From NCBI GenBank assembly GCA_017991375.1, contig JAGOQP010000002.1:2259-66258 (forward strand): DNA of 64,000 nucleotides, given 5' to 3'. How positions within the stretch are numbered: position 1 is the stretch's first letter; every line of letters begins with the position of its first letter. Made by a program: the position numbers and the translations under genes. Origin of the DNA: Minisyncoccota bacterium (GTDB lineage: Bacteria > Patescibacteriota > Minisyncoccia > UBA6257 > JAGOQP01). Below the pieces are notes generated by a model, which ran no database searches, was not told the origin of the DNA, and saw only the letters and a list, made by a program, of their open reading frames with translations. Below are positions 1,352 to 34,145 of this stretch, in pieces.

Positions 1352-3091
1352 ATGCTCTTTATATCAAACTTAGTACAGCTCATGCGTTCATACGCTACAC
1401 GCATGCCATTTCATAACTTATCACAGGCAAAAAACGAAGAGCCATATACCATATACCATAAGCTATACGCTATTTCTACTGCCCGTTCGGGGCAACTCCT
1501 TGCCGAGGTGCTGATTGCGATTGCGGTAGGGAGCATTCTTATTATTGGGTCAACGATCGCGATGGTGTCTGTCGTAAGAACGAATAATCAAAATAGACAA
1601 AATCAAGCAGGTAGTGCGATGGCACACGATATGTTAGAGAGAATCCGGGCGCTGAGTGTCCGTGACTGGAACACGCTTAGCTCGCTTTCGCGTGGATCAA
1701 ACAATGCATACGCCGTGGCGCCAGGAACGTCAACCGCTTCTATTTTTTTGGGTAAGGAGGGTGTCTTGCTTAACGATATAACGGCGGGACTGGTGGGGCA
1801 TTGGAAATTTGACGAGCTTTCCGGAACAACTGTGTATGATTTCTCGGGGAATCAAAATAATGGAGTTTTGGGAACTACGACGCGCGTATCTGCCACGTCA
1901 AGTTGTCCTGTTAGTTTTTGCGCGAGTTTTAATGGAACGAGTAGCTCTCTCACCGTTCCGGATAATACCACCTTGGATATTTCAGGACAGTTTACGCTTG
2001 CCGCTTGGGTACGGTGGGATCAGTTTAAAAATCATGGCATTATTGCTCAAAAAGGAACGGGTGCCGACGCGAATGTTATGAATTATGGAATTGTTTCGTC
2101 TGTAGGAAATCAAATAACCGGAAGTATTAGCACCGCGACTACCAGCAATTCAGTTTCGTATACATCAGCAAGCATTCTTTCAACAAACACATGGCACCAC
2201 ATCGCCTTCGTTGCCGATGGATCAACGCTTACGTTATACGTTAATGGTGTTTCTCGGGCAACTCAGCAACAACTTATCCAACCACGGGCGAATGCTAATC
2301 CATTTCTCATATCGTCTCCATATTCATCGTACTCTTTTGATGGCGCCATCGACGACGTTCGTTTATATAATAGAGCGCTGAACACGAATGAAATTAACGC
2401 TCTTGCAAAAAATCTCGTGCTTATGAGAATGTTTTTTGTGGATTCAGTAGCGCGAGATCAATGCGGAAGTGGGAATGTTACTACAACGGCGACAACTACA
2501 TGCGTAACATGGAACGGCATTGCGTCTGATCCGTCAACGCTCAATATAACAACCCAAGTTCTATCAAATAGCAGCACGTTTTCAATTGTAGTTCCCACAT
2601 TAATAACAAGAACGCAAAACAATTCGGCGATTCAAAAAGGATGGTTGGAAGAATCAATTATTGGGCCTGTTTCCGATTTTGAGCTTGGTTTTGCAAGTTC
2701 GTCAAATATTGCGCTGGTGGGGCAGTCAATTCGTCCCCTGACATCTTCAACAACAGGGATCGTGTACTCAAGCATATTAGACACGCGGGGTACGTTAGGA
2801 GTGAATTTTAATACGTTGTGGTGGCACGGAACCTTACCTACTAATGCTCATGTTCGTTTCCAAATCGCATCATCAAATTCATCAAGCACATCAGGGTGGA
2901 ATTTCATTGGTCCTGGAGGAACATCTTTGATAACTGATTATTATGAACCATCCGATTCGGGAAAGCCGACTAAAATAAATATTCAATACCACAATAACCA
3001 TCGCTTTTTTAGATACAAACTTTTCTTAGTTCCTGATTCCGCTGGGCTAGGGCCGATTGTTAACGACGCGGTTATTAATTGGAGTTTCTAA
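1352..3091 (+). CDS. large pseudopilin-like protein with LamG domain (start codon uncertain)
   Basis: ...ARSG|QLLAEVLIAIAVGSILIIG (E at +5) TM helix; internal LamG-like block LVGHWKFDELSGTTVYDFSGNQNNG...DDVRLYNRALNTNEINAL; leader is unusually long, so the start may be internal (M at 1403). Confidence 0.7.
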   Translation: MLFISNLVQLMRSYATRMPFHNLSQAKNEEPYTIYHKLYAISTARSGQLLAEVLIAIAVGSILIIGSTIAMVSVVRTNNQNRQNQAGSAMAHDMLERIRALSVRDWNTLSSLSRGSNNAYAVAPGTSTASIFLGKEGVLLNDITAGLVGHWKFDELSGTTVYDFSGNQNNGVLGTTTRVSATSSCPVSFCASFNGTSSSLTVPDNTTLDISGQFTLAAWVRWDQFKNHGIIAQKGTGADANVMNYGIVSSVGNQITGSISTATTSNSVSYTSASILSTNTWHHIAFVADGSTLTLYVNGVSRATQQQLIQPRANANPFLISSPYSSYSFDGAIDDVRLYNRALNTNEINALAKNLVLMRMFFVDSVARDQCGSGNVTTTATTTCVTWNGIASDPSTLNITTQVLSNSSTFSIVVPTLITRTQNNSAIQKGWLEESIIGPVSDFELGFASSSNIALVGQSIRPLTSSTTGIVYSSILDTRGTLGVNFNTLWWHGTLPTNAHVRFQIASSNSSSTSGWNFIGPGGTSLITDYYEPSDSGKPTKINIQYHNNHRFFRYKLFLVPDSAGLGPIVNDAVINWSF

Positions 3092-3095
3092 TGAT

Positions 3096-3665
3096 ATGAC
3101 GATTAGACGAGGGCTATATATTGGCATAGTCGGCCTTTGCGCGTTGTGTGCCTTAGGGCTCTTTTTTCATTATCGTGAACATGCTTTGAATACAACACAA
3201 AACGTCGGCAATATAACATGTGTTACACGAGAGTATGAAGCGTTGGTGCAGGGCGTGTCGCTTGAAGAGATTGTGAAACCGGGATCGTTAGTGCGTGTTC
3301 AAGAGGGGTTTTATAACTGTAACCCAGTAAGACGAGGGGACGTGGTCGCGTATCATTACGCGGGAAACGCCGCGCCGGTTATTAAGATAGTATATGGTAT
3401 TCCCGGGGATGCGTGGCGCGTTTCTATGTCCGCAAGCGGAACTACAATCATTCTTAATGAACAAAACGTGACTACCCCTGCGGGTAAGACGTTCTTGATG
3501 ACATCAAAGCGGGCACAGATGCTTTCGATGTATGCGCGGGATTATCCAATTATTCCCGCCGACACCTATTTGCTTCTTGGTACCGATCCATGGGGGACGC
3601 TTGATAGCTCTCGCTTTGGACTGGTCCATAAAAATGATCTTATTGGGCGTGCGCGCGCGCAGTAG
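3096..3665 (+). CDS. S26 signal peptidase I-like protein
   Basis: N-terminal TM helix; RGDVVAYHY...VIKIVYGIPGD and LLLGTDPWGTLDSSRFGLVHKNDLIGRA resemble SPase I boxes D and E; start placed at M14 of the printed ORF to avoid overlap with the upstream gene. Confidence 0.5.
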   Translation: MTIRRGLYIGIVGLCALCALGLFFHYREHALNTTQNVGNITCVTREYEALVQGVSLEEIVKPGSLVRVQEGFYNCNPVRRGDVVAYHYAGNAAPVIKIVYGIPGDAWRVSMSASGTTIILNEQNVTTPAGKTFLMTSKRAQMLSMYARDYPIIPADTYLLLGTDPWGTLDSSRFGLVHKNDLIGRARAQ

Positions 3666-10539: not shown

Positions 10540-10567
10540 AGAATTAACCTACAACATACTTACTCGG

Positions 10568-10618
10568 TTAACGATTAAAGATGAAAGATAGATGGGTTAC
10601 ATGTAGAACGATAAACGT
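10568..10618. repeat. AT-rich direct repeat TTAACGATTAAAGATGAAAG..., copy 1
   Basis: About 80% identical to 11015-11068; the two copies bracket ORF 10697-11002. Confidence 0.6.
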
Positions 10619-10696
10619 GAAACGAGTCATAGATCAATACCATACCGTTAAGGATTAACGATCAATTTATCTGTTCCTCTTCTAACTTCCTTCTGT

Positions 10697-11002
10697 CTAT
10701 TCGTCTTCTTCTAAAATCTTTAGTATCATATCTTCCACGCTGATTTTTCCCATAGGTCGTTTACCATCGGATGATGTATCCAGTTCTTCCCATCGGGGTA
10801 TATAGCTCATTACTCCATTTTTTTTCGGGATGATAAAATGTTCATCGCTGAGCGTTATCTCAACATGAGGAAATTTTTCTCGCATTTTTCTTATGAGTTT
10901 TTGCGCGCGATCTGTTTCAATCCAATTTGAGTGGCCTCTGTTTCCATGGGAATCTTTTGTTTGTTCAATTTGTCGTGCCCAGTCGTTTTTTATGTGTTCC
11001 AT
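10697..11002 (-). CDS. hypothetical protein (101 aa)
   Basis: Intact ORF between direct repeats; no recognisable motif. Confidence 0.45.
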   Translation of the reverse strand: MEHIKNDWARQIEQTKDSHGNRGHSNWIETDRAQKLIRKMREKFPHVEITLSDEHFIIPKKNGVMSYIPRWEELDTSSDGKRPMGKISVEDMILKILEEDE

Positions 11003-11371: not shown

Positions 11372-13013
11372 TTATAAGCAAAAAACACGTTGAAAACAGC
11401 CCTTGGGTATTGTATGCTAAGTGCGCATAAAAATTCAAATACCATGGGCCTATGGTATACCGGTAGAACGCCTCCATGGCATGGAGGAGAACGGGGTTCA
11501 ATTCCCCGTAGGTCCACCAAAGTTGATTAGTCGCCTCGCTCGGCGCTTCGCGCCTCGCTTCGGCAGGCATTTCCGCAAGGAAATGCCAAGGGTTTTTGAA
11601 ATCAATCGTCAATTTTCCCGCCGCAAGGCGGCGGTTCGAGCCGATGGTTTTGAGAAAATTTTTCATTTCCGAAAAATTTTCAGACAAAATGAGATTTTTG
11701 GCTTGGTTGGCCTCTAAAATCCAATTTCGGGTGAGTTCGAGCCAATGATTTCCTTTTCGCTCAAAATCCGATAATTTTTCCTCAATATCTTTCTTTTCCG
11801 CCATTAGTTTGTTTTTCTTTTCCTGAAATTCCGCCAGTTCAAAACTGCCTTCAAGATAGCCGTCCATTAAGCGGTCTATTTTTGTTTTTATGGCGGAAAG
11901 TTCGGTTTTAAGATTTTGAGCGAAAAGGTCTGATGTTTGGCGGTTTTCGCTTTCCCATTCTTTCACTTTGCAAAGATATTTTTCCCGCCAAACATCGGGC
12001 AAAGAAACTTTTTGACAAATCTCTTTTACTTGCTCGGTCAAAACTTCTTCCCGCAAAAAGCGAGCTTGAGAACAATTTTGCGTTTTGCTTTTGTGGGTGC
12101 AACGATAATAAACAAATTTTAGTCCGCTTTTCTTGATGTGCCGTTCGGCTGTTATGGCATATCCGCACTCGCCACAAACCGCAAAATTGAGAAATTGAAA
12201 GTTTTTCGGTCCTCGCTTTTTGCGGGGCTTGCCGTTTGTGATTAACGCTTCTTGTATTTGGTCAAAAAGTTTCTTTGAAATCATTGGCTTATGCGATCCT
12301 TGATGAATTTCGCCACGATAGCGAAAATGTCCGTAATAGAATGGATTAGTCAAAATTTTCTGAATGGTGGAAAGATGAGGCAGTTTCCCGTCTTTGCCAA
12401 CCAAGCCAAGAGAAAACATTTTGCCTTGAATAGCGGTAAGCGTGTAATTGCCAGTGGCAAAAGCCCGCAAAACTTCTTTCACTTTGTTAAAAGTTTTTCT
12501 ATCGGGTTCTATAGTTCGCAGACGAGGTTCGTTGAAATATCCGAGCGGGGCTTTTGCCGATAGCTCACCGCGTCTTATTTTCTGCCTGATTCCGCGCAAA
12601 ATGTTTTCTCTTAAATTGTCGGTGTAATACTTTGCTTGTCCGAAGGCGACAGACAACATAAATTTTCCCTGCGGTGTCGCTTCAAACCAAAATGTGGGGA
12701 ATTTTAGCGATTCAATCTTTTTTGTGTCCACAAGGTAAATTACTTTTCCGCCGTCTATTGAATTTCTAGCCAATCTATCGGGATTCCACGCTAAAATTCC
12801 CGAAGCGTTGCCTTTTTCAATTTCCGAAAGCATAAAATTAAAAACTTCTCGGCCCGGCTCTTTGGCTGTTTTGCTTTCGTAAAATTCTTTGACGACAAAA
12901 AGATTGTTTTGTTTGGCAAACTCGCGAAGTTCCGTGAGCTGGGCCTCAATAGACAAAACTTGTCTTTCCTCGTCCTCGCTTGATTTGCGACAATAGATAA
13001 AGTATTTTATCAT
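11349..13013 (-). CDS. large serine recombinase (resolvase/invertase N-terminal domain + recombinase domain + zinc ribbon + coiled coil)
   Basis: N-terminus MIKYFIYCRKSSEDEERQVLSIEAQ...AWNPDRLARN (serine-recombinase catalytic domain); CGECGYAITAERH...YYRCTHK zinc ribbon. The ORF has no stop until 11349, so it reads through IR-A, antisense tRNA-Ala and into tRNA-Arg; the true C-terminus is probably upstream (~455 aa to the IR boundary). Confidence 0.85.
   Translation of the reverse strand: MIKYFIYCRKSSEDEERQVLSIEAQLTELREFAKQNNLFVVKEFYESKTAKEPGREVFNFMLSEIEKGNASGILAWNPDRLARNSIDGGKVIYLVDTKKIESLKFPTFWFEATPQGKFMLSVAFGQAKYYTDNLRENILRGIRQKIRRGELSAKAPLGYFNEPRLRTIEPDRKTFNKVKEVLRAFATGNYTLTAIQGKMFSLGLVGKDGKLPHLSTIQKILTNPFYYGHFRYRGEIHQGSHKPMISKKLFDQIQEALITNGKPRKKRGPKNFQFLNFAVCGECGYAITAERHIKKSGLKFVYYRCTHKSKTQNCSQARFLREEVLTEQVKEICQKVSLPDVWREKYLCKVKEWESENRQTSDLFAQNLKTELSAIKTKIDRLMDGYLEGSFELAEFQEKKNKLMAEKKDIEEKLSDFERKGNHWLELTRNWILEANQAKNLILSENFSEMKNFLKTIGSNRRLAAGKLTIDFKNPWHFLAEMPAEARREAPSEATNQLWWTYGELNPVLLHAMEAFYRYTIGPWYLNFYAHLAYNTQGLFSTCFLLINPRSSTD
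11446..11519 (+). tRNA. tRNA-Ala (anticodon GGC), CCA encoded
   Basis: Acceptor GGGCCTA/TAGGTCC with the G3:U70 Ala identity pair; anticodon stem CCTCC/GGAGG with loop ATGGCAT; T-arm CGGGG-TTCAATT-CCCCG; ends ACCA. Confidence 0.8.
11514..11637. repeat. IR-A left copy (124 bp)
   Basis: Reverse complement of 13156-13279 with 2-3 mismatches; contains hairpins GGCATTTCC-gcaa-GGAAATGCC and CCGCCGC-aa-GGCGGCGG; outer end overlaps the tRNA-Ala CCACCA. Confidence 0.9.
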
Positions 13014-13155
13014 AATTTTTAGAAGTTTTTAATTTTATAAAAAGGCAACGCTTTACACCGACAATTTATTAAAATCTCATTTTGTATTCCGCTGAAGGCG
13101 GAAGAAAACCATCGGCTCATTGCGGCTTTGGCGCAATACAAATTCTTAAATTTGT

Positions 13156-13279
13156 GAACCGCCGCCTTGCAGCGGGAAAATTGGCGATTGATTTCAAAAA
13201 CCCTTGGCATTTCCTTGCGGAAATGCCTGCCGAAGCGAGGCGCGAAGCGCCGAGCGAGGCGACTAATCAACTTTGGTGG
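13156..13279. repeat. IR-A right copy (124 bp)
   Basis: See 11514-11637. Confidence 0.9.
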
Positions 13280-13561
13280 TGTTTGTTGGAAAAAGTCAGA
13301 ACTCATTTTGAACAAAATCCCGACTAATTCGCTCCGCCCCGCCGCCGCTCGCTTCGCTCGCTGTTCCGCAAAAAAAGTTTTCTTCGCATTTTTTGATTTG
13401 GCGCGCGATTTCTTTTTCTTCTAAAAGGAAAACAAAACTTTTTTGCGAGACCCTGCTCTGAACGAGCAGGGCGGCGGGGCTTCGCTTCGGCTCGGGCGAG
13501 GCGGAATTCCCCCCACACCCCCCTTCCGCCTCGCCCTCGCTTTGGACGCCGACGGAATTTG
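13278..13561. repeat. IR-B left copy (284 bp, GC-rich)
   Basis: Near-perfect reverse complement of 16141-16424; GC about 60% versus about 35% for the enclosed cargo; contains hairpins GAGGCGGAA-N17-TTCCGCCTC and GCCCTGCTC-gttca-GAGCAGGGtC; abuts IR-A. Confidence 0.9.
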
Positions 13562-13746
13562 TATTTTGCTTTGCAAAATGCACCGCAGAAAAAAGAGGTG
13601 TTGCCCTTGCCCCAACCCACCCGTGCGCGGGCAACGATAAGGAACTCCCTAATTTCGTTTGACTAAATGATAAAAATTTCATATACTAACTATTGATGAT
13701 AAAGGTTTTATATCCTCACTAACTATCATAGTAAAACTATACGAAT

Positions 13747-13956
13747 ATGTCAAACGAAAAATCCACAATCGGCGAGAATATAAAAAAATACCGAAACAAG
13801 CTCGGTATTTCACAGGATCAGCTTTCAAAGAAAGCGGATTTGGCTTTTCATACTATCGCCAAAATTGAAGCAGGCGCAACGCCCAATCCCACCATTGATA
13901 CTGTTAAAAAAATAGCGAGCGCATTGGGCGTTTCGCTTGATGTATTAATGAAATAA
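13747..13956 (+). CDS. XRE-family helix-turn-helix transcriptional regulator
   Basis: 69 aa; IKKYRNKLGISQDQLSKKADLAFHTIAKIE is a canonical Cro/C1 HTH. Confidence 0.8.
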   Translation: MSNEKSTIGENIKKYRNKLGISQDQLSKKADLAFHTIAKIEAGATPNPTIDTVKKIASALGVSLDVLMK

Positions 13957-14070
13957 AAACAACATCGGGGTGTTTAAAAGTTGCCTTTTTAGCCTAATTT
14001 GATATAATAAGTTTAATATGTTTCTACATAATATATACAAAAATACCACACTTTCTTTTCCTACCGTCAC

Positions 14071-14113
14071 TTAACCGGTTGTTTTAGTGCATGAGCAAAA
14101 AACAACCGGTTAA
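14071..14113. terminator. inverted repeat TTAACCGGTTGTTTT-N11-AAAACAACCGGTTAA followed by T-rich tract (terminator and/or operator)
   Basis: 15-bp perfect arms, downstream ttgttttttaaatttt; lies between the xre gene and the rnk-like gene. Confidence 0.4.
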
Positions 14114-14140
14114 AACGGTTGTTTTTTAAATTTTAAACCT

Positions 14141-14536
14141 ATGACCAACATATATATTACAAAAAATGATCACAAAAAATTGATCAAGTTGATAAATGAA
14201 AAATTGCCGGATAACGACAGTACTCGTTCTTTGCTTTCTGAACTTAAAAGAGCGGAAATTGTTGAACCGGAAAAGATCCCGGCCAATATCATCACCATGA
14301 ATTCCTTGGTGAATTTTACAGATGTAGATTCGGGGACGGAACTTGAGTATCGGTTGGTTTTCCCCGAGGATGCCGACATTGCTCAACGCAAGATATCGGT
14401 GATTTCTCCGGTGGGGTGTGCTTTATTGGGGTATCGCGTTGGTGATATCATTAATCTTAAAACACCGAGCGGAGAGAAAAAAATCAAAGTCGAAAAAATA
14501 TTGCACCAACCCGAAGCCGAAGGCAATTATGAATAA
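14141..14536 (+). CDS. Rnk-like regulator (GreA/GreB C-terminal FKBP-like domain)
   Basis: C-terminus ISVISPVGCALLGYRVGDIINLKTPSGEKKIKVEKI matches the GreA/GreB C-terminal domain consensus; 131 aa, as for Rnk. Confidence 0.65.
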   Translation: MTNIYITKNDHKKLIKLINEKLPDNDSTRSLLSELKRAEIVEPEKIPANIITMNSLVNFTDVDSGTELEYRLVFPEDADIAQRKISVISPVGCALLGYRVGDIINLKTPSGEKKIKVEKILHQPEAEGNYE

Positions 14537-15185
14537 TATGATAAACAAGAATAAAATAAGCACAACAATCCGCTTTTTGATATTGTCTGACTTTTTTCTT
14601 TTTTTTGCTGTCGGTTTATTGGCCCCAATATTCGCCGTCTTTGTCCTTGAAAATATAGAAAATAAAATAGAAGTTATCGGTTTTGCCATGTCTTGCTACT
14701 GGTTGACCAGAGTGATTATGGTTGTTCCACTTAGTCGGCTGATGGATAAAATCAGAGGTGAAATTGACGAATGTTCGTTCATGATTATTGGCACCTTTTT
14801 AATATCAATCATTCCTTTGTTTTACATCATGTCATCTGCCCCTTGGCATATTTATGTATTGCAGATAGTGAACGGAATTGCTAACTCTATGGCGGTTCCG
14901 GCTTGGCGTATTCTCTTTACCAATCACATAGATAAAAAAATTGTTGGTCTTGAATGGTCGTTAGAAGATGTCGGGGTTGGCATCGCTACGGCCTCCAGCG
15001 CCACTATCGGCGCTTTTATTGCCAGCAAACTGGGTTTTAACGTTTTGTTTGGAATGATTTCGTTTTTTGGTTTATTAGCGACAATAATTCTTATTGTTTT
15101 GAGCAAGAAAAAAGGAATGATTTTAAGTAAATTTATCATCAATAAAGCGGAAAAAGCACCGCTCAAGTTGGATACTTTTAAATAA
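14526..15185 (+). CDS. six-TM half-size MFS-like membrane transporter
   Basis: Six predicted TM helices; start taken at ATG 14526, overlapping the upstream gene end. Confidence 0.45.
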   Translation: MMNNMINKNKISTTIRFLILSDFFLFFAVGLLAPIFAVFVLENIENKIEVIGFAMSCYWLTRVIMVVPLSRLMDKIRGEIDECSFMIIGTFLISIIPLFYIMSSAPWHIYVLQIVNGIANSMAVPAWRILFTNHIDKKIVGLEWSLEDVGVGIATASSATIGAFIASKLGFNVLFGMISFFGLLATIILIVLSKKKGMILSKFIINKAEKAPLKLDTFK

Positions 15186-15189
15186 ATTT

Positions 15190-16122
15190 ATGGCAATCAA
15201 TTTATTAATTTTTATTATCTCGCTTTACGCCATTGCCAAAGGAGCGACAATGGCCACAAAATATTCCGTCAAACTGGCAGAAAATTTTAGAATCTCAAAA
15301 TTTCTGGTCGGTTTCATGATCGTGGCAATAATTTCAATCCTCCCCGAAACATTTGTTGCCATTAATGCTTCATTGGAAAATATTCCCTCATTCGGACTTG
15401 GTACTCTGTTCGGATCAAATGTCGCTGACTTGACTTTAGTTTTTGCGGTAGTTGTGTTTCTCACCGGCAAAAAGTTAAAAGTTGAAGGGAAAATTTTAAA
15501 GAATAACATTGTGTATCCATTTATACTTTTATTGCCATTAATATTGGGTTTAAATGGACACTATTCGAGACTTGAGGGTCTGACTCTGATTGTTGCGGGA
15601 GGAATATTTTATTATCTTGCTCTGAGAAACGGAACTAACCATTCTGCCGTGGTACACAATGGGCATAACGGGAAAAGCAAAAACTTTCTACTTCTATTAT
15701 TTAGCATGGCAATCTTATTGGTAGGATCACATTTTACCGTTACTTCTGCTGTAGGAATCGCCAATTATTTTAATATAAACCCTGTTCTTATTGGAATGCT
15801 TGTCGTAGGACTTGGTACAACCATTCCAGAATTACTTTTCTCACTAAAATCTGTCAAAAAACACGATGATTCGTTAGCTGTCGGAGATATTCTCGGTACA
15901 GTGCTTGCTGATGCTACTATCGTAGTGGGGATACTCGCCTTGATCAATCCATTTTCATTTCCACAAAAAATCATTTATATAACTGGCATGTTTATGGTCG
16001 GCGCTTCGTTTATGTTGTTTAAATTTTTGAAAACTGGCCGTACTCTTTCAAAAAAAGAAGCTTGTTTGTTGATTATTTACTGGTTGCTTTTTGTAGTTGT
16101 GGAATTTACGGTAAACAGGTAA
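15190..16122 (+). CDS. CaCA-family cation/Ca2+ antiporter (YrbG-like)
   Basis: Two alpha-repeat motifs: ISILPETFVAI and GLGTTIPELLFSL; about 10 TM helices. Confidence 0.7.
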   Translation: MAINLLIFIISLYAIAKGATMATKYSVKLAENFRISKFLVGFMIVAIISILPETFVAINASLENIPSFGLGTLFGSNVADLTLVFAVVVFLTGKKLKVEGKILKNNIVYPFILLLPLILGLNGHYSRLEGLTLIVAGGIFYYLALRNGTNHSAVVHNGHNGKSKNFLLLLFSMAILLVGSHFTVTSAVGIANYFNINPVLIGMLVVGLGTTIPELLFSLKSVKKHDDSLAVGDILGTVLADATIVVGILALINPFSFPQKIIYITGMFMVGASFMLFKFLKTGRTLSKKEACLLIIYWLLFVVVEFTVNR

Positions 16123-16140
16123 AATAAGTGTACAAAGCCT

Positions 16141-16424
16141 CAAATTCCGTCGGCGTCCAAAGCGAGGGCGAGGCGGAAGGGGGGTGTGGGGGGAATTCCG
16201 CCTCGCCCGAGCCGAAGCGAAGCCCCGCCGCCCTGCTCGTTCAGAGCAGGGTCTCGCAAAAAAGTTTTGTTTTCCTTTTAGAAGAAAAAGAAATCGCGCG
16301 CCAAATCAAAAAATGCGAAGAAAACTTTTTTTGCGGAACAGCGAGCGAAGCGAGCGGTGGCGGGGCGGAGCGAATTAGTCGGGATTTTGTTCAAAATGAG
16401 TTCTGACTTTTTCCAACAAACACC
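16141..16424. repeat. IR-B right copy (284 bp)
   Basis: See 13278-13561. Confidence 0.9.
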
Positions 16425-16480
16425 ACTGCTACTCCGCCGCAACGAGATCAGTAAACCCAGGAAAACTATTCATGTTTTTT

Positions 16481-16522
16481 CTCTACCACAAATCTCCACG
16501 ATCGTGGAGATTTGTGGTAGAG
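16481..16522. repeat. 42-bp perfect palindrome CTCTACCACAAATCTCCACGATCGTGGAGATTTGTGGTAGAG
   Basis: Self-complementary; second copy (36 bp) at 32075-32110; both followed by AAGTGTTA. Confidence 0.95.
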
Positions 16523-16543
16523 AAGTGTTAGGTAGTTCACGTG

Positions 16544-16579
16544 CCCTTCCGTAGTCCGCCCTTGGTGGATGTAGGAGGG
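16544..16579 (+). repeat. REP-like hairpin element, copy 1 (CCCTTCCGTAGTCCGCC...TGGATGTAGGAGGG)
   Basis: Family consensus CCCTTCCGTAGTCC-loop-GGAC-N-AGGAGGG; other copies at 25427, 26664 (-) and 41435 (-). Confidence 0.75.
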
Positions 16580-16667
16580 CTAATCACTCCAGTTATAGAT
16601 TAGTCCTTCTCTGGCTGATGGTAATTATCCGTTTCACTTTCTACGTTTAACATTCCACTCTTCTTTG

Positions 16668-16738
16668 TCGGGCTGCTGGGAATTGAACCCAGGCCGTATG
16701 CTCCCAAAGCATATATACTACCGTTATACTACAGCCCG
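16668..16738 (-). tRNA. tRNA-Pro (anticodon UGG)
   Basis: Reverse-complement: acceptor CGGGCTG/CAGCCCG, anticodon stem TATGC/GCATA with loop TTTGGGA (G37), T-arm CTGGG-TTCAATT-CCCAG; 71 nt. Confidence 0.75.
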
Positions 16739-17009: not shown

Positions 17010-20000
17010 GTGTGGTATACTTATAGTGTGATAGTGAACGATGTAAATAACGCACATAAGGTTAAGCGGAGTGCTGTTCGTATCCTTGCGTCACTAGGCA
17101 TAGGCATGGTGATTTTTGGTGCGCTTGGTGGAGCGGCATATGTGTTTGCTATTCCTCCGCTCTCGCCATACGATCCCAATGAAACACTGGATCCAACTTG
17201 TGCCCCCGGTGATATTAATTGTACCGTTGTAACACCAGTTGCTGGGACAGGAGCTCTTGGGCAAATCGGATTTTTTAGCGGGACATCAACGATTGCAAGT
17301 GATTCAAAATTTACCTTTAGTTCGTCAACGGGTGATTTGGGGCTTGTGTCGGATTCGGCCCAGTTTAAACTAGGGGCGCTCTCTGATGTGGGGATCACGC
17401 GTAGTGTAGCGGGAACGTTAAAAATCACCGATGGATCAACTGGTCTTGGATCAATACACATTGGAGGGATGACCTTTGGCACTGCGAGCGGATTACTCAA
17501 AGCAACTGCAGGTGTAGTGAGCACCGCGACATCAAGCGATGCTGATCTAATTCTTCCTACGCAAACAGGAAATAGCGGAAAATATCTTACCACCAACGGA
17601 GCAACGTCTTCGTGGGCGACAGTCCCCAGTTCACAATGGACTACATCGGGGAGTGGTATTTATTACGACAGTGGAAACGTAGGAATTGGAACGGTTAGTC
17701 CGTTGTCAAAACTGCACGTGTCTGGTGGAGCGCGTGTTGATGGAGATACTGGCAACGCGACGTTAGCTGGGTATCTCTCAAGCTCGACCCTCAATGTTTA
17801 CAACGGAAATACAACAGATAATAATTACGCGTCGATCGGATTTTCTTCGTATTTTGAACGAACGGGATTAATTAATATAAATGGAGCTCCAGCGGCTGGG
17901 ATGGGGGCACAATTCTTAAGTCACGTGTCGGCAAGTAGTTTTAACTTTCCAACAGATCTTTATTTTTGGACAGGATATAGCGCTATCGGAGAAGGACTTG
18001 GAATTCCAGCGAGTGAGAAAATGAGAATCACTGCCGCGGGTAATGTCGGTATTGGTACATCAACCCCCCGGGGTCTTTTGGAGGTAGCAAGTAGCACTTC
18101 AAAAACAACTTTGTTTACCGTGTTACCGAATGGATATGTAGGAATAGGGACGGCAACTCCAAGTTATGGATTACAAGTTACTGGGTCATCTTATCTTGCA
18201 GGGAACGCTTTTACGGCAAATGGTGGGTATTTTGGTTTTGGTGGAAGCAATTCTTCTATTTATGGATCATCAGCCGTTGGAAGTAACTACATGGCATTCT
18301 ACACATCAAGTACGGAAAGAATGAGGATTAATCATACAGGCAATGTCCTTATCGGCACCTCAACCGCATCGGGCGTGTTTGTCGTAGCAACAAGCACCGC
18401 AACAAGTCCATTGCTTAGTGTTCTTAATAACGGGAGTGTTTATATGGGCGTTTCTACGCAGGGTTTTGGATTGTTGAATATGAATTCTGATGGAACAGTA
18501 ACGTTAAGAAACACTGCTGGTGCCAATGGTATAACATTTACTGGTGGCACTGCGTCAAGTATTGTGTTTAATTCCGACTCAACCGTGAACGCACAAGTCA
18601 TAAAAACAAGTTCAGCTAACTCATTAACCTTTGGGACAAATAACACCGAACGAATGAGGATTGATAGCACCGGCAACGTCCTTATTGCCACCACCACAAC
18701 ATCGACAGCGCTTCTTACTCTTGGTGCCGCAACAACCACAACAATAACCGATCTTCTTATCAATCCAGCGGCAAAAAACGCGGGGAATTTAATTGACGCC
18801 CAAGTAGGAGGGGTGAGTAAGTTTAGTGTAAGTAATACGGGGAGCGTTATTGCTTCGGGTGCGCTTACGGTTGGTAGTTTTTCAATCAATGCCAGAAAAT
18901 GGTATTCAGATGGCGTATATTTTGCGGCTGGTTCTGCAAATCAATTAATGTGGTCATCCACTATTGATGCTATAGGCACTAAAGACCTTGGTCTTGCTCG
19001 TTCCTCAGCTGGGACATTAAAAATTACTGATGGTTCAACAGGATTTGGAGATTTGTTGGCTGGGAAAGTATCTTTAACGGCAACTGATTCTTCTGCGGCA
19101 ACTGATTTGCTTGTTAACCCAACGACAAAGACAAGTGGAAATTTGATTGACGCCCAGGTAGGAGGGGTGAGTAAGTTTAGTGTAACGAACTTAGGAGCAT
19201 TAACTACGGGAAGTAGTATTACTTCAAGTGGAAATATAACAGCCAAATCTTCAATGAGAACTACTGGTGATTACCTACAACCATCAGGAGCTTTTATTGC
19301 TTGGTCTAGTACAGCTAGTACATTTGCGACTCCAGATATCGGCCTCTCTCGCTACAACGCAGGAGTGCTGGCGGTAGGCAATGGAACTGCGAGTGATTAC
19401 TCAGGAAGTATGCTCGTGGGTCGTATTGGCATAGCTACGACCACTACGTCAACAGCTATTCTCACTGTCGGTGCCGCTACAACCACAACCATAACTGACT
19501 TACTCATCAATCCATCAGCAAAGGATGGGGGGAAATTAATTGACGCCCAGGTAGGAGGAGTGAGTAAGTTTAGTGTAAGTAATAGAGGTTTACTGACAAC
19601 GGCGAGCGCAATAGTATCTGGAACTCTCTATAACTACAACATTGGGGGTGGTGGTAACACAACGCTTAATTTACAAAATGGGAGCATGGTTGCTAGTAGT
19701 ACCACTGCCGTAAGTGCAGCGGGCGGAACGTTCAGTCAGACATCTGGTTCTAATGTGGCATTTAGAATTAATCCTACCTACAACCAATCTTCAGGCACAG
19801 CCGCTAACACCGACCTGCTTATCAACCGCACCGAAACAGCAGTAGGGAGTGGGACGCAAAGATTAATTGACGCCCAGGTAGGAGGAGTGAGTAAGTTTAA
19901 CGTTACCAATCTCGGTCGAGGATATTTTGCTGACGGGATTAGTATTGCTACATCGTCGACTTCATATGGATTAATTGTTGGTGACGGGTCAACACAAAAG

Positions 20001-20960
20001 GATGTATATATTCCCAAAGGGGGACTTTGTGTGGATGATGATAACGCTGGGTGTGCGTCAACACCAACAGCAGGAACGATTTATGCCAAAGCAACGGCAA
20101 TTACCGGCATAGACGTTGCTGAACATTATCCGACTAACGATATATCACTCGAATCAGGCGATGTGGTTTCGTTCAGCACACAAAATTCAACATTTATAGA
20201 AAAATCAACGGCCTCATCAACTCAATATCTTGCGGGAGTCATTTCAACAGAGCCGGGCGTGCTTCTTGGAAAAAATATAGAAAACGCGCGACCGGTCGCT
20301 CTTAACGGGCGCGTGCCGGTAAAAGTATCAACTGAAAACGGAGCGATTAATATTGGTGATTATCTTACCGTATCATCACAACCGGGCGTTGCGGCAAAAG
20401 CGACGAGTCCAGGTATGACTATTGGTATGGCGCTTGAGACATACAATCAGTCGGGTGTTGGAAAAATTACCGTGTTTGTGCGCACCGGGTTTGCGCTGGG
20501 GTCAAGCGAAGCCGCTTCTGGTGGTGAAGGTGGTCTTATCACGCTTCTCACGCGAACATTCGCGTCAATTGGTATTACTATAGAAAACGGAATTACATCA
20601 ATTAAACAACTCATTGTTGATAAAATTACTACCAAAGAATTGTGCGTGGAAGATCTTTGTTTAAATAAAGAACAACTCAAGTTTATCTTGGATAGAAATG
20701 GTATTACTATTGGATCGCCTATCCCTCCACAAGAATCATTGCCACCTGCTCCAACACCTCCCGTAACAGCATCGTCAACAGAGGAGGCCACTCCTACTGA
20801 AACTCCAGCTGAAACTCCAATAGAAACCCCCGTTCCCACTCAAGCGCCTCCGGAACCAACCGCTTCGGAAACTCCACCATCTCCAGAGCCGTCGGCATCT
20901 CCCAGTGAGCAAACACAATCGCCAACAGAAACAGTAACACCAGAAACACCAAGTCAGTAA
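17010..20960 (+). CDS. giant repeat-rich cell-surface protein (about 1300 aa) with a Pro/Thr/Glu/Ser-rich C-terminal tail
   Basis: Signal-peptide-like N-terminus (KVKRSAVRILASLGIGMVIFGALGGAAYVFAI); four copies of LI(N/D)...GNLIDAQVGGVSKF(S/N)V(S/T)N; Gly/Thr/Ser-rich beta-repeat character; tail ETPAETPIETPVPTQAPPEPTASETPPSPEPS. Start codon uncertain: GTG at 17010, first ATG at 17106. Confidence 0.8.
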   Translation: MWYTYSVIVNDVNNAHKVKRSAVRILASLGIGMVIFGALGGAAYVFAIPPLSPYDPNETLDPTCAPGDINCTVVTPVAGTGALGQIGFFSGTSTIASDSKFTFSSSTGDLGLVSDSAQFKLGALSDVGITRSVAGTLKITDGSTGLGSIHIGGMTFGTASGLLKATAGVVSTATSSDADLILPTQTGNSGKYLTTNGATSSWATVPSSQWTTSGSGIYYDSGNVGIGTVSPLSKLHVSGGARVDGDTGNATLAGYLSSSTLNVYNGNTTDNNYASIGFSSYFERTGLININGAPAAGMGAQFLSHVSASSFNFPTDLYFWTGYSAIGEGLGIPASEKMRITAAGNVGIGTSTPRGLLEVASSTSKTTLFTVLPNGYVGIGTATPSYGLQVTGSSYLAGNAFTANGGYFGFGGSNSSIYGSSAVGSNYMAFYTSSTERMRINHTGNVLIGTSTASGVFVVATSTATSPLLSVLNNGSVYMGVSTQGFGLLNMNSDGTVTLRNTAGANGITFTGGTASSIVFNSDSTVNAQVIKTSSANSLTFGTNNTERMRIDSTGNVLIATTTTSTALLTLGAATTTTITDLLINPAAKNAGNLIDAQVGGVSKFSVSNTGSVIASGALTVGSFSINARKWYSDGVYFAAGSANQLMWSSTIDAIGTKDLGLARSSAGTLKITDGSTGFGDLLAGKVSLTATDSSAATDLLVNPTTKTSGNLIDAQVGGVSKFSVTNLGALTTGSSITSSGNITAKSSMRTTGDYLQPSGAFIAWSSTASTFATPDIGLSRYNAGVLAVGNGTASDYSGSMLVGRIGIATTTTSTAILTVGAATTTTITDLLINPSAKDGGKLIDAQVGGVSKFSVSNRGLLTTASAIVSGTLYNYNIGGGGNTTLNLQNGSMVASSTTAVSAAGGTFSQTSGSNVAFRINPTYNQSSGTAANTDLLINRTETAVGSGTQRLIDAQVGGVSKFNVTNLGRGYFADGISIATSSTSYGLIVGDGSTQKDVYIPKGGLCVDDDNAGCASTPTAGTIYAKATAITGIDVAEHYPTNDISLESGDVVSFSTQNSTFIEKSTASSTQYLAGVISTEPGVLLGKNIENARPVALNGRVPVKVSTENGAINIGDYLTVSSQPGVAAKATSPGMTIGMALETYNQSGVGKITVFVRTGFALGSSEAASGGEGGLITLLTRTFASIGITIENGITSIKQLIVDKITTKELCVEDLCLNKEQLKFILDRNGITIGSPIPPQESLPPAPTPPVTASSTEEATPTETPAETPIETPVPTQAPPEPTASETPPSPEPSASPSEQTQSPTETVTPETPSQ

Positions 20961-26204: not shown

Positions 26205-26356
26205 CGGAGTATCCACGAGCAAGCAAATAATTTTGCTTGCGTCAGGAATCGAACGCCGGAGCTTGTGCGAGTGAGCACACGAGCACGCGAGGCGGTGCCT
26301 AGCCCGAGTTGAGCGACGGCGAAACGAGAGGCGAAGGAGATTTCCTAGCGGGGGTA
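26205..26356 (+). repeat. tRNA 3'-associated conserved structured element ending in a duplicated tRNA-Arg 3' end
   Basis: Hairpin GCAAGCAAATAATTTTGCTTGC; core GAATCGAACGCCGGAGCTTGTGCGAGTGAGCACACGAGCACGCGAGGCGGTGCCTAGCCCGAGTTGAGCGACGGCGAAACGAGAGGCGAAGG; then TTTCCTAGCGGGGGTA, which equals the last 16 nt of the tRNA. The same core lies after tRNA-Tyr (51172-51373); a covarying version lies after tRNA-His (27152-27310). Confidence 0.8.
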
Positions 26357-26436
26357 CGAACGAGTGGAAAGTGAAAAGTGGAAAGTTAAACGAATAAAAG
26401 CAAAGCAAATTGAAGGATGGAAAGTTAAACGATTGG
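26357..26436 (+). repeat. GGAAAGTTAAACGA-type short direct repeats
   Basis: CGAACGAGTGGAAAGTGAAAAGTGGAAAGTTAAACGAA...GGATGGAAAGTTAAACGA; the same block occurs (reverse strand) beside tRNA-Arg(CCU) at 11130-11298. Confidence 0.8.
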
Positions 26437-26663
26437 TCGTTGGTCATTGATTCTTAACCGCAAGACACTCATCTTTAATCGAGAGAGATGGTAGTTAGTT
26501 TTAAGATCAATCCTTGCGTAAGCACTGTTTTCGTATTAGAATACGTTTTGCGTATTTTTATTAATCCCAGTCACTGGTTGTCTGTTGTTAGTCGTTTGTT
26601 GTCTGCCTACGGCAGATCCTGAGCGTAAGTCGAAGGGTAAGTTACTCATATGCCGCGGTAGCT

Positions 26664-26699
26664 CCCTCCGTCGTCCATTTGTGATGGACTATGGAAGGG
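26664..26699 (-). repeat. REP-like hairpin element, copy 3
   Basis: Reverse complement CCCTTCCATAGTCCATCACAAATGGACGACGGAGGG; immediately preceded by a 13-nt tRNA-Phe 5' fragment (GCCGCGGTAGCTC). Confidence 0.7.
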
Positions 26700-26765
26700 C
26701 ACGCAGTGTGCTCCTAGTGTTTGTGCCGTTGTCTGTTGTTAGTCGTTTGTTGTTTGTTGCTATAT

Positions 26766-26872
26766 GCCGCGGTAGCTCAGTGGGTTTAAAGCAAACGATT
26801 TTGCTTTAAACGGGAAATCCAAAAGATATATTGGATTTTCCCTGGAAGAACAGAAAACCGAAGGTCTGCGAT
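26766..26872 (+). repeat. tRNA 5'-associated element: duplicated tRNA-Phe 5' end (18 nt) plus conserved two-hairpin module
   Basis: GCCGCGGTAGCTCAGTGG, then GTTTAAAGCAAACGATTTTGCTTTAAAC (hairpin), GGGAAATCCAAAAGATATATTGGATTTTCCC (hairpin), TGGAAGAACAGAAAACCGAAGGTCTGCGAT; about 90% identical module at 51838-51948 led by the tRNA-Thr 5' end. Confidence 0.8.
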
Positions 26873-31267: not shown

Positions 31268-31348
31268 ACAAAAATAGGATGTATTTTTATAAACACCCTC
31301 GGTATATGCCGAGGATGTTTTGGTATGTGATGTATCGCCCGAAAGCAC

Positions 31349-31378
31349 TTGACAAAATAGCATAAAATGTGCTATAAT
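31349..31378 (+). promoter_or_regulatory. consensus sigma70-type promoter TTGACA-N18-TATAAT
   Basis: ttgacaaaatagcataaaatgtgctataat; upstream of the GC-rich ORF at 31523. Confidence 0.6.
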
Positions 31379-31522
31379 CTGTTTGTTACAAGCACGCTAA
31401 CATATTACTTGCAGATAACAGCTCACAAAAACTGTACATGGGAATTGACCCAAAAACAGTGGTGAGCTCTTACACAGCATGGAGCCCGACTAGGAATCGG
31501 GTAAGATGCCAAGGAGGATACC

Positions 31523-31939: not shown

Positions 31940-32074
31940 TTTTCCCTGGGGATCTTGGAGTTCTTGCGCTCTGCCGCGCTTGGCTCCTTGGTCCCTTTTA
32001 ATTTTTCAACAAAACTGATATGGTGGAAACGGATATTAGGTTCGTATGCGTACGGTCAAGAATTTTGCGTCTTG

Positions 32075-32110
32075 TACCACAAATCTCCACGATCGTGGAG
32101 ATTTGTGGTA
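32075..32110. repeat. 36-bp palindrome TACCACAAATCTCCACGATCGTGGAGATTTGTGGTA (copy 2)
   Basis: Same element as 16481-16522; located at the distal end of the GC-rich insert. Confidence 0.95.
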
Positions 32111-32278
32111 AAAAGTGTTAAACACTCCGTGTTTTAAGATATGAGCTCTAAACTTGTCTAAAGAGTGCTTAATGTTTCTCACCTGACTTGTTTTTTCTCA
32201 CTATTTATTATCCACTAATTGCTTTACCTATTTTCTCGTTTGCCTTCTTTGTTGTAACTAAGGTACTATAAGAGAGAT

Positions 32279-33727: not shown

Positions 33728-33742
33728 TATAATATAAGCACT

Positions 33743-34144: not shown

Positions 34145-34145
34145 A

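Follow-up and report, generated by a model that had tools for sequence, protein, structure and literature searches.

What are the two long palindromes that stand beside GC-rich DNA in this Patescibacteria genome? The sequence-only reading of the 64,000-nt stretch analysed here (the window) took them as marks of foreign-DNA boundaries and proposed a restriction site, a recombination site or a dimeric binding site. Our results argue for the last of these. On sequence evidence and by analogy with the E. coli repressor PaaX, we consider it probable that a small PaaX-like homodimer has its cognate sites in these palindromes, the two copies in question being solo members of a Patescibacteria-wide class. 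As defined here, this class comprises long palindromic sites (30-60 bp, often perfect) centred on CGATCG; in the ultra-small CPR/Patescibacteria it is apparently large and undescribed.

Five palindromes with a common pattern

The first palindrome (family A, copy 1) occupies positions 16479-16524 and reads TTCTCTACCACAAATCTCCACGATCGTGGAGATTTGTGGTAGAGAA: it is perfect over 46 bp, slightly longer than the 42 bp originally claimed, and has CGATCG at its dyad centre. The second (copy 2, 32075-32110) is a perfect palindrome of 36 bp, exactly as had been described. None of the palindromes discussed here is assigned a strand. The 32-mer CCACAAATCTCCACGATCGTGGAGATTTGTGG occurs exactly twice in the window, once in each copy (16486-16517 and 32077-32108), and not once in 100 dinucleotide-preserving shuffles. 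The 8-mer AAGTGTTA, read directly from the sequence, follows copy 1 on the plus strand (16523-16530) and is seen again after copy 2 (32113-32120). Its presence at both copies had been noted correctly, but the spacing differs by 1 nt, as it starts at the 4th base past the 36-bp core at copy 1 and at the 3rd base at copy 2. Neither AAGTGTTA nor the palindrome arms provide a convincing -35/-10 pair as promoter elements of the family-A copies. GTTRRRY after both copies suggested an integron attC reading, which was dropped because attC palindromes are imperfect and come in arrays accompanied by an integrase; no array or integrase is present.

Both family-A copies are solo. Copy 1 lies between convergent transcription units, flanked by a 286-nt inverted repeat, whose end at 16426 leaves a gap of 52 bp, and a tRNA-Pro gene (16667-16738, minus strand). 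Copy 2 is located about 15 bp past the end of a GC-rich cassette (at approximately 32060), and gatB (32279) starts 168 bp downstream of it; the placement of both copies next to GC-rich segments had thus been read accurately. No PaaX-like gene or remnant was found near copy 1, and the 64-kb window holds no cognate gene for family A. The exact family-A core had no matches in JGI metagenome contigs, where no further family-A contexts or cognate gene were obtained. Rfam searches (the whole window at the gathering threshold, and 11-17 kb at E <= 1) returned tRNAs only, plus two weak sub-threshold chance matches.

Family B consists of three further sites, all of them perfect and centred on CGATCG, in agreement with what had been said of the palindromes around 35441. 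The first (35441-35480, 40 bp, centre GCGATCGC) lies upstream of the PaaX-like gene, with a TATAAG hexamer adjoining its gene-proximal edge; its dyad and the annotated ATG are about 126 bp apart, at the far end of the distribution across genes. The second (36189-36224, 36 bp) starts 34 bp past the stop codon of the same gene and precedes the convergent thrS, whose canonical terminator is found beside it (36292-36330). The third (55707-55740, 34 bp) is a solo copy in the region from which tRNA-Trp (55480-55552, minus strand) and an ORF on the plus strand (56022-56702) diverge.

Families A and B both carry ACAAA-N6-CGATCG-N6-TTTGT, and the stricter pattern ACAAA-N2-T-N3-CGATCG-N3-A-N2-TTTGT matches exactly these five sites in the window (0.06 matches expected). 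The suggestion that both families follow a common recognition logic therefore stands: they share a pattern, and such palindromes flank a PaaX-like gene in the window as well as across the Patescibacteria.

A PaaX-like gene between palindromes

The gene flanked by family B (35586-36155, plus strand) encodes a protein of 189 aa with a predicted N-terminal winged helix and a C-terminal Cas2-fold (PaaX_M) domain. The latter is matched by Pfam PF20803 (PaaX_M) over residues 114-179 with an E value of 4.7e-10 and a score of 39.9 bits (gathering score 24). Matches to Cas2 models span about 40 residues (114-153), and the NCBIfam cas2 cut-off is barely reached (24.9 against 24.5 bits); such a Cas2-fold, PaaX-like protein may be mis-annotated as an orphan Cas2. 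PADLOC likewise gave only Cas2 models for this protein and nothing for the GC-rich ORFs, PHROGs gave no match for either, and no transposase family matched the protein. In the AlphaFold2 model (pLDDT 78) the C-terminal domain resembles Cas2 structures according to Foldseek, with a probability of up to 1.0 (SSO1404, E. faecalis Cas2), and residues ~48-100 form helices and a wing (pLDDT 79-91). Profile searches with the N-terminal part gave only weak winged-helix matches of the MarR/PadR/AspA type (E 0.004-0.1), and the Pfam model of the PaaX N-terminal domain did not match. Given that the C-terminal effector (phenylacetyl-CoA-binding) domain is absent, the protein ending at 189 aa, and that the full-length PaaX equivalog TIGR02277 scores far below its cut-off (13.7 against 264.55 bits), we call the protein PaaX-like and not PaaX.

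The protein shares 99% identity with KBC26_00905 from a MAG of Candidatus Pacebacteria, and it belongs to a family of 779 clusters at 50% identity (E <= 1e-30), in which Asp119 is invariant. Its neighbours in the window are miaA and thrS. As the gyrB/thrS/miaA/gatB neighbourhood is conserved across deeply diverged genomes, the PaaX-like gene is a resident gene.

The association of gene and palindromes was approached from both directions. A scan of 185,579 species genomes with a degenerate pattern yielded at least 111 loci, mostly in Patescibacteria. Using a family HMM, a homologue was detected within 600 bp of 29 out of 130 pattern matches, namely at 22 of the 111 loci that had been fetched by DNA pattern only, plus the window (both counts among the matches listed). 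In a de novo palindrome search, most of these HMM-found genes had CGATCG-centred palindromes close beside them, in many cases on either side. An independent, protein-first sample of 80 metagenome loci contained 81 homologous genes. CGATCG-centred palindromes flank 55 of these genes on at least one side and 28 on both, while 26 have none by the criteria used. The flanking palindromes of any kind in this sample are centred on CGATCG (85), CGGCCG (10) or CGRYCG variants (5).

The upstream dyad is found at a median distance of 47 bp from the predicted start codon and the downstream dyad at a median of 51 bp past the stop codon. The upstream copy overlaps the promoter region of the PaaX-like gene and adjoins a hexamer resembling a -10 box: at dyad offsets 30-34 and 40-44, 28 such hexamers were counted across 55 upstream palindromes, against 10 on the distal side of 61 downstream palindromes. 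A Staskawiczbacteria MAG illustrates the arrangement with a 200-aa homologue that has a near-family-A palindrome on both sides; TGGTACAAT starts 6 nt past the upstream copy and is separated from the ATG by 8 nt.

Within the sites it is the centre and the arms that are conserved. Internal mismatches are concentrated at dyad positions 5-8, with positions 1-4 and 9-17 kept, and their types (75 G:U-type, 57 A:C-type, 133 other) show no G:U bias. This anatomy points to a reading at the level of DNA. Moreover, identity of the C-terminal domain tracks the distance between inner sites (positions 4-8) when the N-terminal domain is controlled for (10 of 1000 permutations as extreme; partial Mantel-type test). 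Identity of the N-terminal domain tracks arm distance (0 of 1000 permutations), a correlation that is gone once close relatives are excluded. The apparent double dissociation is a weak hint that each domain may read its own sub-region of the site.

Candidate dimer sites and competing explanations

E. coli PaaX is an autoregulated winged-helix repressor with a central dimerisation domain, and its operator is TGATTC-N27-GAATCA, 39 bp in all (PMC9493321). The protein studied here resembles PaaX in combining a predicted winged helix with a Cas2-like dimerisation domain (the PaaX_M match). Its candidate sites resemble the operator as long palindromes with distal half-sites at the gene's own promoter: family B in the window has the form TGTTAC-N24-GTAACA, and the palindromes measure 34-46 bp. 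Together with their place beside the gene, this matching geometry makes a dimeric binding site the best of the functions originally proposed. The differences are nonetheless considerable: the CPR proteins (189-200 aa) do not have the C-terminal effector domain, their candidate sites are often perfect with an almost invariant CGATCG centre, these sites occur on both sides of the gene and in multiple solo copies, and no paa catabolic genes are found near the gene.

Besides flanking its gene, the palindromes most likely bind the small PaaX-like DNA-binding protein, as is suggested by their co-location and by family analogy. The dimer would be placed on double-stranded DNA with its two winged helices on the arms (approximately positions 9-17 from the dyad) and its Cas2-fold dimer over the CGATCG centre, comparable to E. 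coli PaaX on its operator. The upstream copy at the gene would then act as an autorepression operator, whereas the downstream and solo copies, including both of family A, would be extra binding sites, perhaps with a roadblock, insulation or architectural role. The two families have ACAAA (positions 10-14), T (position 7) and the centre in common; family A may therefore be bound by the protein encoded in the window or by a paralogue encoded outside it. No enrichment of -10 hexamers adjoins the solo palindromes, and copy 1 lies between convergent units, so that the data give no support to a classical regulon in which the solo copies would be operators overlapping promoters. All solo copies are intergenic, whatever the orientation of the neighbouring genes: of 65 classifiable copies, 36 lie between tandem, 15 between divergent and 14 between convergent genes. 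A tRNA is found within 300 bp of 9.2% of the palindromes against 3.5% of random positions, roughly as for any intergenic element.

A REP/RAYT-like system, in which the palindromes are selfish or domesticated repeats that the Cas2-fold protein recognises, cuts or propagates (with 16481 and 32075 as dispersed copies), has in our view a modest chance of being correct. Like REP/REPIN elements, the palindromes are short intergenic repeats with several near-identical copies per genome, and they stand on either side of a single resident gene, which is also the arrangement of RAYT genes. The dispersed copies within one genome are near-identical over 32-44 bp and fully identical (32-36 bp) even at positions that vary freely between genomes; one Saccharibacteria MAG holds some 15 copies surrounded by a cloud of single-arm and symmetric variants. 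Several sequence families can coexist in a genome with shared arms and different inner positions (A and B in the window, X and Y at L057, and JACPKF01). Between the copy upstream and the copy downstream of the same gene, changes that affect both arms symmetrically (53) outnumber those in a single arm (36), and at L057 the gene has the same 115-bp block of two palindromes on either side, as a perfect direct repeat. For these identical copies and symmetric changes, copying, gene conversion or hairpin-templated correction would fit at least as well as independent selection of operators. The Cas2 fold with its family-wide Asp119 is also a nuclease fold, and the solo copies are not tied to promoters.

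Several observations nevertheless speak against propagation. Neither presence/absence polymorphism nor a target-site signature was observed, and copy numbers are low (about 5-15 per genome). Gene synteny is conserved, although RAYTs are likewise vertically inherited. The upstream copy keeps a fixed relation to the promoter, which argues for regulation. The flanked gene is of the PaaX_M/Cas2-like type and not a Y1/HUH transposase, nor does its product belong to any known transposase type. The palindromes also differ from REPs in being spacer-less, often perfect and devoid of a REP-like 5' tetranucleotide. In PaaX, the Cas2-like domain is a dimerisation motif (PMC9493321).

It might further be argued that the Cas2-fold/winged-helix protein is a Patescibacteria-specific enzyme for maintenance or propagation of its own palindromes, REP/RAYT-like or proto-CRISPR-like, and that the palindromes may at the same time be preferred landing sites for small promoter-bearing gene cassettes. 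We give this only a small chance. If true, it would explain the identical dispersed copies, the symmetric evolution of the arms and the fact that three GC-rich segments of the window have an end 15-60 bp from a palindrome.

Bidirectional terminators or mRNA-stabilising hairpins, acting at the RNA level, are quite improbable. As with rho-independent terminators, the predicted hairpins are stable and contain GC (-18.5 to -39.4 kcal/mol, with z-scores of -6 to -10), many copies are situated just past stop codons (see the downstream median given above), and a terminator scan did find one copy (36189, minus strand). The ordinary terminators of this genome (14097, 36292, 47997, 62470), however, have loops and A/T tracts, whereas the palindromes have neither a U-tract nor a loop, family A being devoid of a U-tract on either strand. 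Moreover, thrS has its own terminator beside the 36189 copy, and 15 of the 65 classifiable solo copies have divergent genes on their two sides, a setting with promoters but no 3' ends. Mismatches avoid the would-be loop, CGATCG, which is the best-conserved stretch of the site, and the G:U wobble bias of an RNA structure is absent. The generic terminator that had been named as an alternative can thus be set aside.

The boundary idea itself, an att-like site or insertion hot spot marking the edges of horizontally acquired GC-rich DNA, we consider just as improbable, and as a general rule it is largely refuted. Locally the observation holds: three of the five window palindromes have a GC-rich segment 15-60 bp away (nominal p ~0.006), and the segment at 31.3-32.06 kb, which ends so close to copy 2, is a portable cassette that recurs in two other contexts (L198 and L199). 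The pattern was not replicated elsewhere. At 82 perfect palindromes from other genomes the GC-rich flank amounts to 0.081 against 0.082 at random positions, so that copies across genomes are scattered without relation to compositional boundaries. No palindrome follows the cassette at L199 or marks its proximal edge in the window, nor does one accompany the window's GC-rich segments at 13.3-13.6 kb and 57.2-58.1 kb. Conversely, a Saccharibacteria MAG (L074) with the same gyrB-nusG-rplK...gatB order carries a palindrome of the same class downstream of rplK without the cassette. The palindrome may have come first: the cassette would have been inserted between rplK and a pre-existing palindrome, which itself would lie outside the insert. 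The degenerate pattern had no match in the 2.9 million viral contigs of IMG/VR and gives no phage link.

The serine recombinase encoded in the window (11640-13013) was considered as the enzyme of a recombination site, and this part of the original proposal found no support. Among 196 other loci carrying such palindromes or PaaX-like genes we found no homologue. An att site of a large serine recombinase has an imperfect dyad around an asymmetric central dinucleotide; the site here is a perfect palindrome with a symmetric AT centre, and in those 196 loci it does not co-occur with a homologue of the recombinase.

Finally, there is barely any chance that a restriction-modification or methylation motif (PvuI-type CGATCG or Dam-type GATC) in chance palindromes, similar to cyanobacterial HIP1, accounts for the sites: although the centre (CGATCG or GCGATCGC) is invariant, in the window CGATCG (17 observed, 16.4 expected) and GATC (253 against 220) are neither depleted nor hyper-abundant, which also leaves the restriction site proposed earlier without support. 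The likeness to HIP1, which is reportedly linked with CGATCG and GATC methyltransferases in cyanobacteria, resides in the GCGATCGC octamer of family B and in CGATCG at the dyad of family A. HIP1 is, however, an 8-mer that is hyper-abundant genome-wide and also found within genes, whereas the octamer is rare here (4 in 64 kb against 1.1 expected, three of them inside family-B palindromes) and the conserved unit is an intergenic palindrome of 30-60 bp, not a motif of 6-8 bp.

Relation to CRISPR-Cas2 and wider significance

The Cas2 fold of the C-terminal domain, together with palindromic repeats of about 36 bp, calls to mind CRISPR adaptation. The Cas2 protein of that system stands alone, measures about 90-110 aa and is encoded with cas1 beside a CRISPR array. 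Here only some 40 residues match and the domain is fused to a predicted winged helix. The repeats are spaced about 650-750 bp apart around a gene and not around 30-bp spacers, and a repeat search of the window found no tandem array of 28-37-bp repeats.

A large part of bacterial diversity belongs to the Patescibacteria/CPR, yet to our knowledge few of their regulators, and almost nothing of their regulation, have been characterised. The preferred reading, cognate sites of a PaaX-like dimer, would tie a large protein family to a precise and easily recognised DNA site, which could then be predicted in one genome after another, and provides a directly testable candidate protein-DNA pair in these organisms. 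The apparent dimer-wide reading of a perfect palindrome of 36-46 bp, with arms that co-evolve symmetrically, poses a mechanistic question in its own right.

A minor observation concerns assembly. Contigs in Logan assemblies of the same organism are short, and one contig across the region, the single case that was traced, has both of its ends inside palindromes (window positions 32081 and 35470). As this short-read contig begins and ends there, the palindromes may contribute to the fragmentation of CPR MAGs.

Long palindromes with a CGATCG centre

The 32-mer on which the sequence-only reading was built has exactly two occurrences in the window (16486-16517 and 32077-32108) and none across 100 shuffles, which confirms a palindrome at two sites. 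These occurrences lie within perfect, spacer-less palindromes of 46 bp (A1, 16479-16524) and 36 bp (A2, 32075-32110), here called family A. As had been described, AAGTGTTA is found 3' of both copies, with an offset differing by 1 nt. A sister family B, TGTTACAAAAATTAGCGATCGCTAATTTTTGTAACA, is perfect at three window sites: 35441-35480 (40 bp), 36189-36224 (36 bp) and 55707-55740 (34 bp). The pattern common to both families, ACAAA-N2-T-N3-CGATCG-N3-A-N2-TTTGT, has five exact matches in the window (against 0.06 expected), and these are the five palindromes. The counts of CGATCG (17 against 16.4 expected), GATC (253 against 220) and GCGATCGC (4 against 1.1, with three of the four within family B) are not unusual, so that the interest attaches to the long palindrome and not to the hexamer.

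A1 is located where an upstream plus-strand gene block and tRNA-Pro converge, and A2 lies upstream of gatB, which begins 168 bp further on; no convincing promoter overlaps A1 or A2. Intrinsic terminators of the ordinary type, with a loop and an A/T tract, occur in the window at 14097, 36292, 47997 and 62470. The CGATCG palindromes are unlike these: they lack a loop, and in family A neither strand carries a T-run.

One genome per species (185,579 species) was scanned with a degenerate 28-nt pattern containing 18 fixed bases, for which about 9 chance matches are estimated in 596 Gb. We obtained at least 111 loci. Among the matches listed, roughly 76 loci have perfect palindromes of 28-54 bp, about 60 of them from CPR-labelled MAGs; the CPR labels among these matches are Saccharibacteria, Parcubacteria, Microgenomates, Berkelbacteria, Uhrbacteria, Nomurabacteria, Staskawiczbacteria and Roizmanbacteria. 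A few listed matches carry other MAG labels (Gammaproteobacteria, Limnocylindria, Thermotogota and Bacteroidota; binning as labelled). The same pattern gave no match in 2.9 million viral contigs. Copies are dispersed, not clustered; on a 397-kb Saccharibacteria contig they fall in the 176-184, 184-192 and 384-392 kb blocks, and in a fragmented Saccharibacteria MAG about 15 copies share a 32-bp core that hardly varies.

A PaaX-like gene beside the palindromes

The two closest family-B copies bracket an ORF of 189 aa (35586-36155, plus strand). Its product matches Pfam PaaX_M ('PaaX protein central Cas2-like domain') at 4.7e-10 (39.9 bits, cut-off 24), Cas2 models match its residues 114-153, and in the AlphaFold2 model (pLDDT 78) the C-terminal domain resembles Cas2 structures with a Foldseek probability of up to 1.0. 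The N-terminal half gives weak winged-helix matches (MarR, PadR, AspA). The protein is PaaX-like and not PaaX, since the PaaX C-terminal effector domain is absent and the equivalog score fails (TIGR02277, 13.7 bits against a cut-off of 264.55). It has its fold in common with CRISPR Cas2 but is not one: the domain is fused to a putative winged helix, and a repeat search of the window found no array.

A family profile built from 18 homologues retrieved 779 clusters (50% identity) with E <= 1e-30; almost all are 185-225 aa long. The window reads as a Patescibacteria (CPR) chromosome. It has ten tRNAs and the gene order gyrB, nusG, rplK, GC-rich ORF, gatB, 133-aa ORF, miaA (minus), 53-aa ORF, 189-aa ORF, thrS (minus). 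Elsewhere the synteny gyrB-PaaX-like-thrS is seen in at least six loci, with miaA or gatB adjoining in others, and this conservation indicates a resident, vertically inherited gene.

A homologue detected with the HMM of this family lies within 600 bp of 29 of the 130 pattern matches. Among the matches listed, this is the case for 22 of the 111 loci found by DNA pattern only, plus the window. When palindromes were detected de novo, most of these genes proved to be closely flanked by CGATCG-centred ones, many on both sides. As a control for bias, 80 metagenome loci (81 genes) were fetched by protein similarity alone: CGATCG-centred palindromes occur on both sides of 28 genes, downstream only of 19 and upstream only of 8, and are absent by the analysis criteria in 26. 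The centres of flanking palindromes of any kind are CGATCG (85), CGGCCG (10) and one-mismatch CGRYCG variants (5), and the arms vary widely by lineage (ACTATCCTA, AGTCAACTG, ATAACAAAT and others). The universal signature is thus a CGATCG dyad plus lineage-specific arms. In a Staskawiczbacteria MAG the palindrome TTTTCCACAAATTTCCACGATCGTGGAAATTTGTGGAAAA flanks a 200-aa homologue on both sides; because it differs from family A by one base in the inner arm, family A belongs to the same class. No second PaaX-like homologue or remnant was found in the window.

For ten of the 18 closest homologues the sole source is a contig of 770-1072 bp. The one case that was traced is a Logan short-read contig of the same organism (L115); it equals window positions 32081-35470 and both of its ends fall inside palindromes; the palindromes are a likely cause of CPR MAG fragmentation.

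Site anatomy, proposed binding and possible copying

The median distance from the upstream dyad to the predicted start codon is 47 bp, and that from the stop codon to the downstream dyad is 51 bp. At 30-34 and 40-44 from the dyad we counted 28 -10-like hexamers for 55 upstream palindromes, against 10 on the distal side of 61 downstream palindromes. By these offsets the gene's -35 region falls inside the proximal arm, which, as far as predicted promoters go, would be the classical layout of an autorepressor and its operator. At the Staskawiczbacteria locus TGGTACAAT starts 6 nt past the palindrome and the ATG follows 8 nt past TGGTACAAT. Solo copies (those without an adjoining PaaX-like gene) are intergenic in every arrangement (tandem 36, divergent 15, convergent 14) and show no -10 enrichment beside them; the 12 'genic' matches are mostly chance and non-palindromic. 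In imperfect copies the mismatches are concentrated at dyad positions 5-8, with positions 1-4 and 9-17 kept. They comprise 75 of G:U type, 57 of A:C type and 133 others, and in the absence of a G:U-type bias selection on an RNA-level hairpin is not indicated.

Co-location with the gene, promoter overlap and the anatomy of the site are all observed, and with modest confidence we favour the reading that the palindromes are binding sites of the dimeric PaaX-like protein. We infer that a homodimer would bind the palindrome as double-stranded DNA with a division of labour between domains, the two winged helices lying on the arms and the Cas2-fold dimer over the CGATCG centre; at the upstream copy, the bound dimer would repress the gene by occluding its own promoter. 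In a partial Mantel-type test, which speaks weakly for this division of labour, N-domain identity tracks arm distance with C-domain identity controlled (0 of 1000 permutations as extreme, a signal that is gone without close relatives), and C-domain identity tracks distance at positions 4-8 with N-domain identity controlled (10 of 1000). The common recognition logic suggested earlier for the two families fits a dimeric binding site; its other variants, a restriction or a recombination site, were not upheld.

In E. coli, PaaX combines a winged helix with a central dimerisation motif; this repressor acts on its own promoter and binds TGATTC-N27-GAATCA (PMC9493321). Family B can be written as TGTTAC-N24-GTAACA, and the palindromes are like PaaX operators in geometry and promoter placement. 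We classify the system as a minimal PaaX-type regulator whose presumed site is unusually long, perfect, CGATCG-centred, duplicated round the gene and dispersed. Cyanobacterial HIP1 has only the core in common. A full-text literature search returned no description of the palindromes or of a link to the PaaX-like family (which is not proof of absence); this appears to be a widespread, testable and so far undescribed protein-DNA system in CPR bacteria.

Some observations go beyond a plain operator model. Copies dispersed in one genome are identical over 32-36 bp, including positions that vary freely between genomes. Comparing 35 upstream/downstream pairs of one gene, we counted 53 symmetric differences in both arms against 36 in one arm, where independent mutation is estimated to give about 3 symmetric complementary changes (with an ascertainment bias, only near-perfect palindromes being compared). 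In a Saccharibacteria contig (L057) a block of ~115 bp, made up of two different palindromes and a spacer, is present on either side of the gene as a perfect direct repeat (2198-2318 and 3047-3163). Such patterns could come from a co-evolving dimer that reads the whole site, from gene conversion or hairpin-templated correction, or from copying of the palindromes as elements. The last of these would make the system REP/RAYT-like, which it resembles in genomic layout; we regard this as unlikely. RAYT genes, too, are vertically inherited, and synteny therefore cannot separate this alternative from the operator model.

GC-rich segments and other features of the window

The palindromes had also been proposed to mark boundaries of foreign DNA, and as a general rule this did not hold. 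Three of the five in the window lie within 15-60 bp of a GC-rich segment (nominal p about 0.006); for 82 perfect palindromes elsewhere the corresponding value is 0.081 against 0.082 at random positions, which is no excess. No palindrome accompanies the GC-rich segments at 13.3-13.6 and 57.2-58.1 kb. The segment at 31.3-32.06 kb (31326-32060) is a real portable cassette, with a consensus TTGACA-18-TATAAT promoter (31349-31378), a leader of ~140 nt, a strong Shine-Dalgarno site, an ORF (31523-31939) and a conserved 3' flank. The ORF encodes a 138-aa orphan (KBC26_00880) without any family match; in a Candidatus Pacebacteria MAG (108-kb contig), KBC26_00905 and KBC26_00880 match two proteins of the window at 99-100% identity. 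The cassette recurs in a Logan contig downstream of efp (L198, 4817-5753) and in a JGI contig (L199, about 250-1300), with longer ORFs (219 and 189 aa); in the window copy, parts of the leader and of the N-terminus are deleted. Homology with L199 stops about 15 bp short of A2 and L199 has no palindrome there, which places the palindrome outside the cassette. In L074, a Saccharibacteria MAG whose gene order is likewise gyrB-nusG-rplK...gatB, the cassette is missing and a palindrome of this class lies about 138 bp past rplK. The simplest history would be insertion of the cassette between rplK and a palindrome already present.

The idea of a recombination site fares no better, as 196 related loci contain no homologue of the large serine recombinase encoded nearby. 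The gene for this recombinase (11640-13013, minus; as listed, the ORF continues through tRNA-Ala) lies between the arms of a 124-nt inverted repeat (11514-11637 / 13156-13279, 98%). Directly next lies a 2.6-kb segment inside a perfect 286-nt inverted repeat (13276-13561 / 16141-16426), with genes for an XRE-type HTH protein, a GreA-like protein and two membrane proteins. Reverse-complementing 13156-13561 gives the sequence of 16141-16426 joined to 11514-11637, and 11514-16426 looks like two adjacent invertible segments or the product of past recombination.

A 37-nt GC-rich motif (CCCTTCCGTAGTCCGCC..GGAGGGC), extending to about 46 nt with TAATCACTC, is present at 16544-16580 (20 bp past A1) and, inverted, at 41434-41470, directly upstream of a 1065-aa gene (38252-41449, minus). 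The copies are 89% identical, and Rfam over 11-17 kb gave nothing matching the motif, whose function may be that of a leader or of a regulatory RNA/DNA element. Between miaA and the upstream family-B palindrome sits an inserted GC-rich mini-gene (35078-35384), in which a promoter of its own (35078-35106) and a Shine-Dalgarno site precede a 53-aa ORF (35170-35331) and a separate terminator (35351-35378) follows. With its hydrophobic N-terminus and basic tail, the 53-aa product resembles a toxin or small membrane peptide. The ORF at 57164-58054 (296 aa, GC about 61%, signal-peptide-like start, proline-rich region) has no PADLOC or PHROGs family, and the nearest palindrome is >1.4 kb off; it is a compositional outlier to which the palindromes are unrelated.

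A region of ~700 bp beside tRNA genes is present twice (26246-26865 and 51265-51939). It holds an 89-nt GC-rich repeat (89% identical), small hairpins (GTTTAAAGCAAACGATTTTGCTTTAAAC) and low-complexity GTTGT-rich tracts, and similar tracts lie beside other tRNAs (10.5-11.3, 16.8 and 55.8 kb). Two giant surface-protein-like ORFs contain internal tandem domain repeats: 58150-62406 (1418 aa; 300-nt units, 5-7 repeats, 59.0-61.8 kb) and 17010-20960 (1316 aa; 350-390-nt units at 18.7-19.9 kb). Finally, two loci of the same organism from two samples, L112 (6324-6728) and L113 (about 10566-10908; window about 5.8-6.2 kb), appear to differ in whether a 134-aa PDDEXK_3 gene lies between a 511-aa ORF and leuS.
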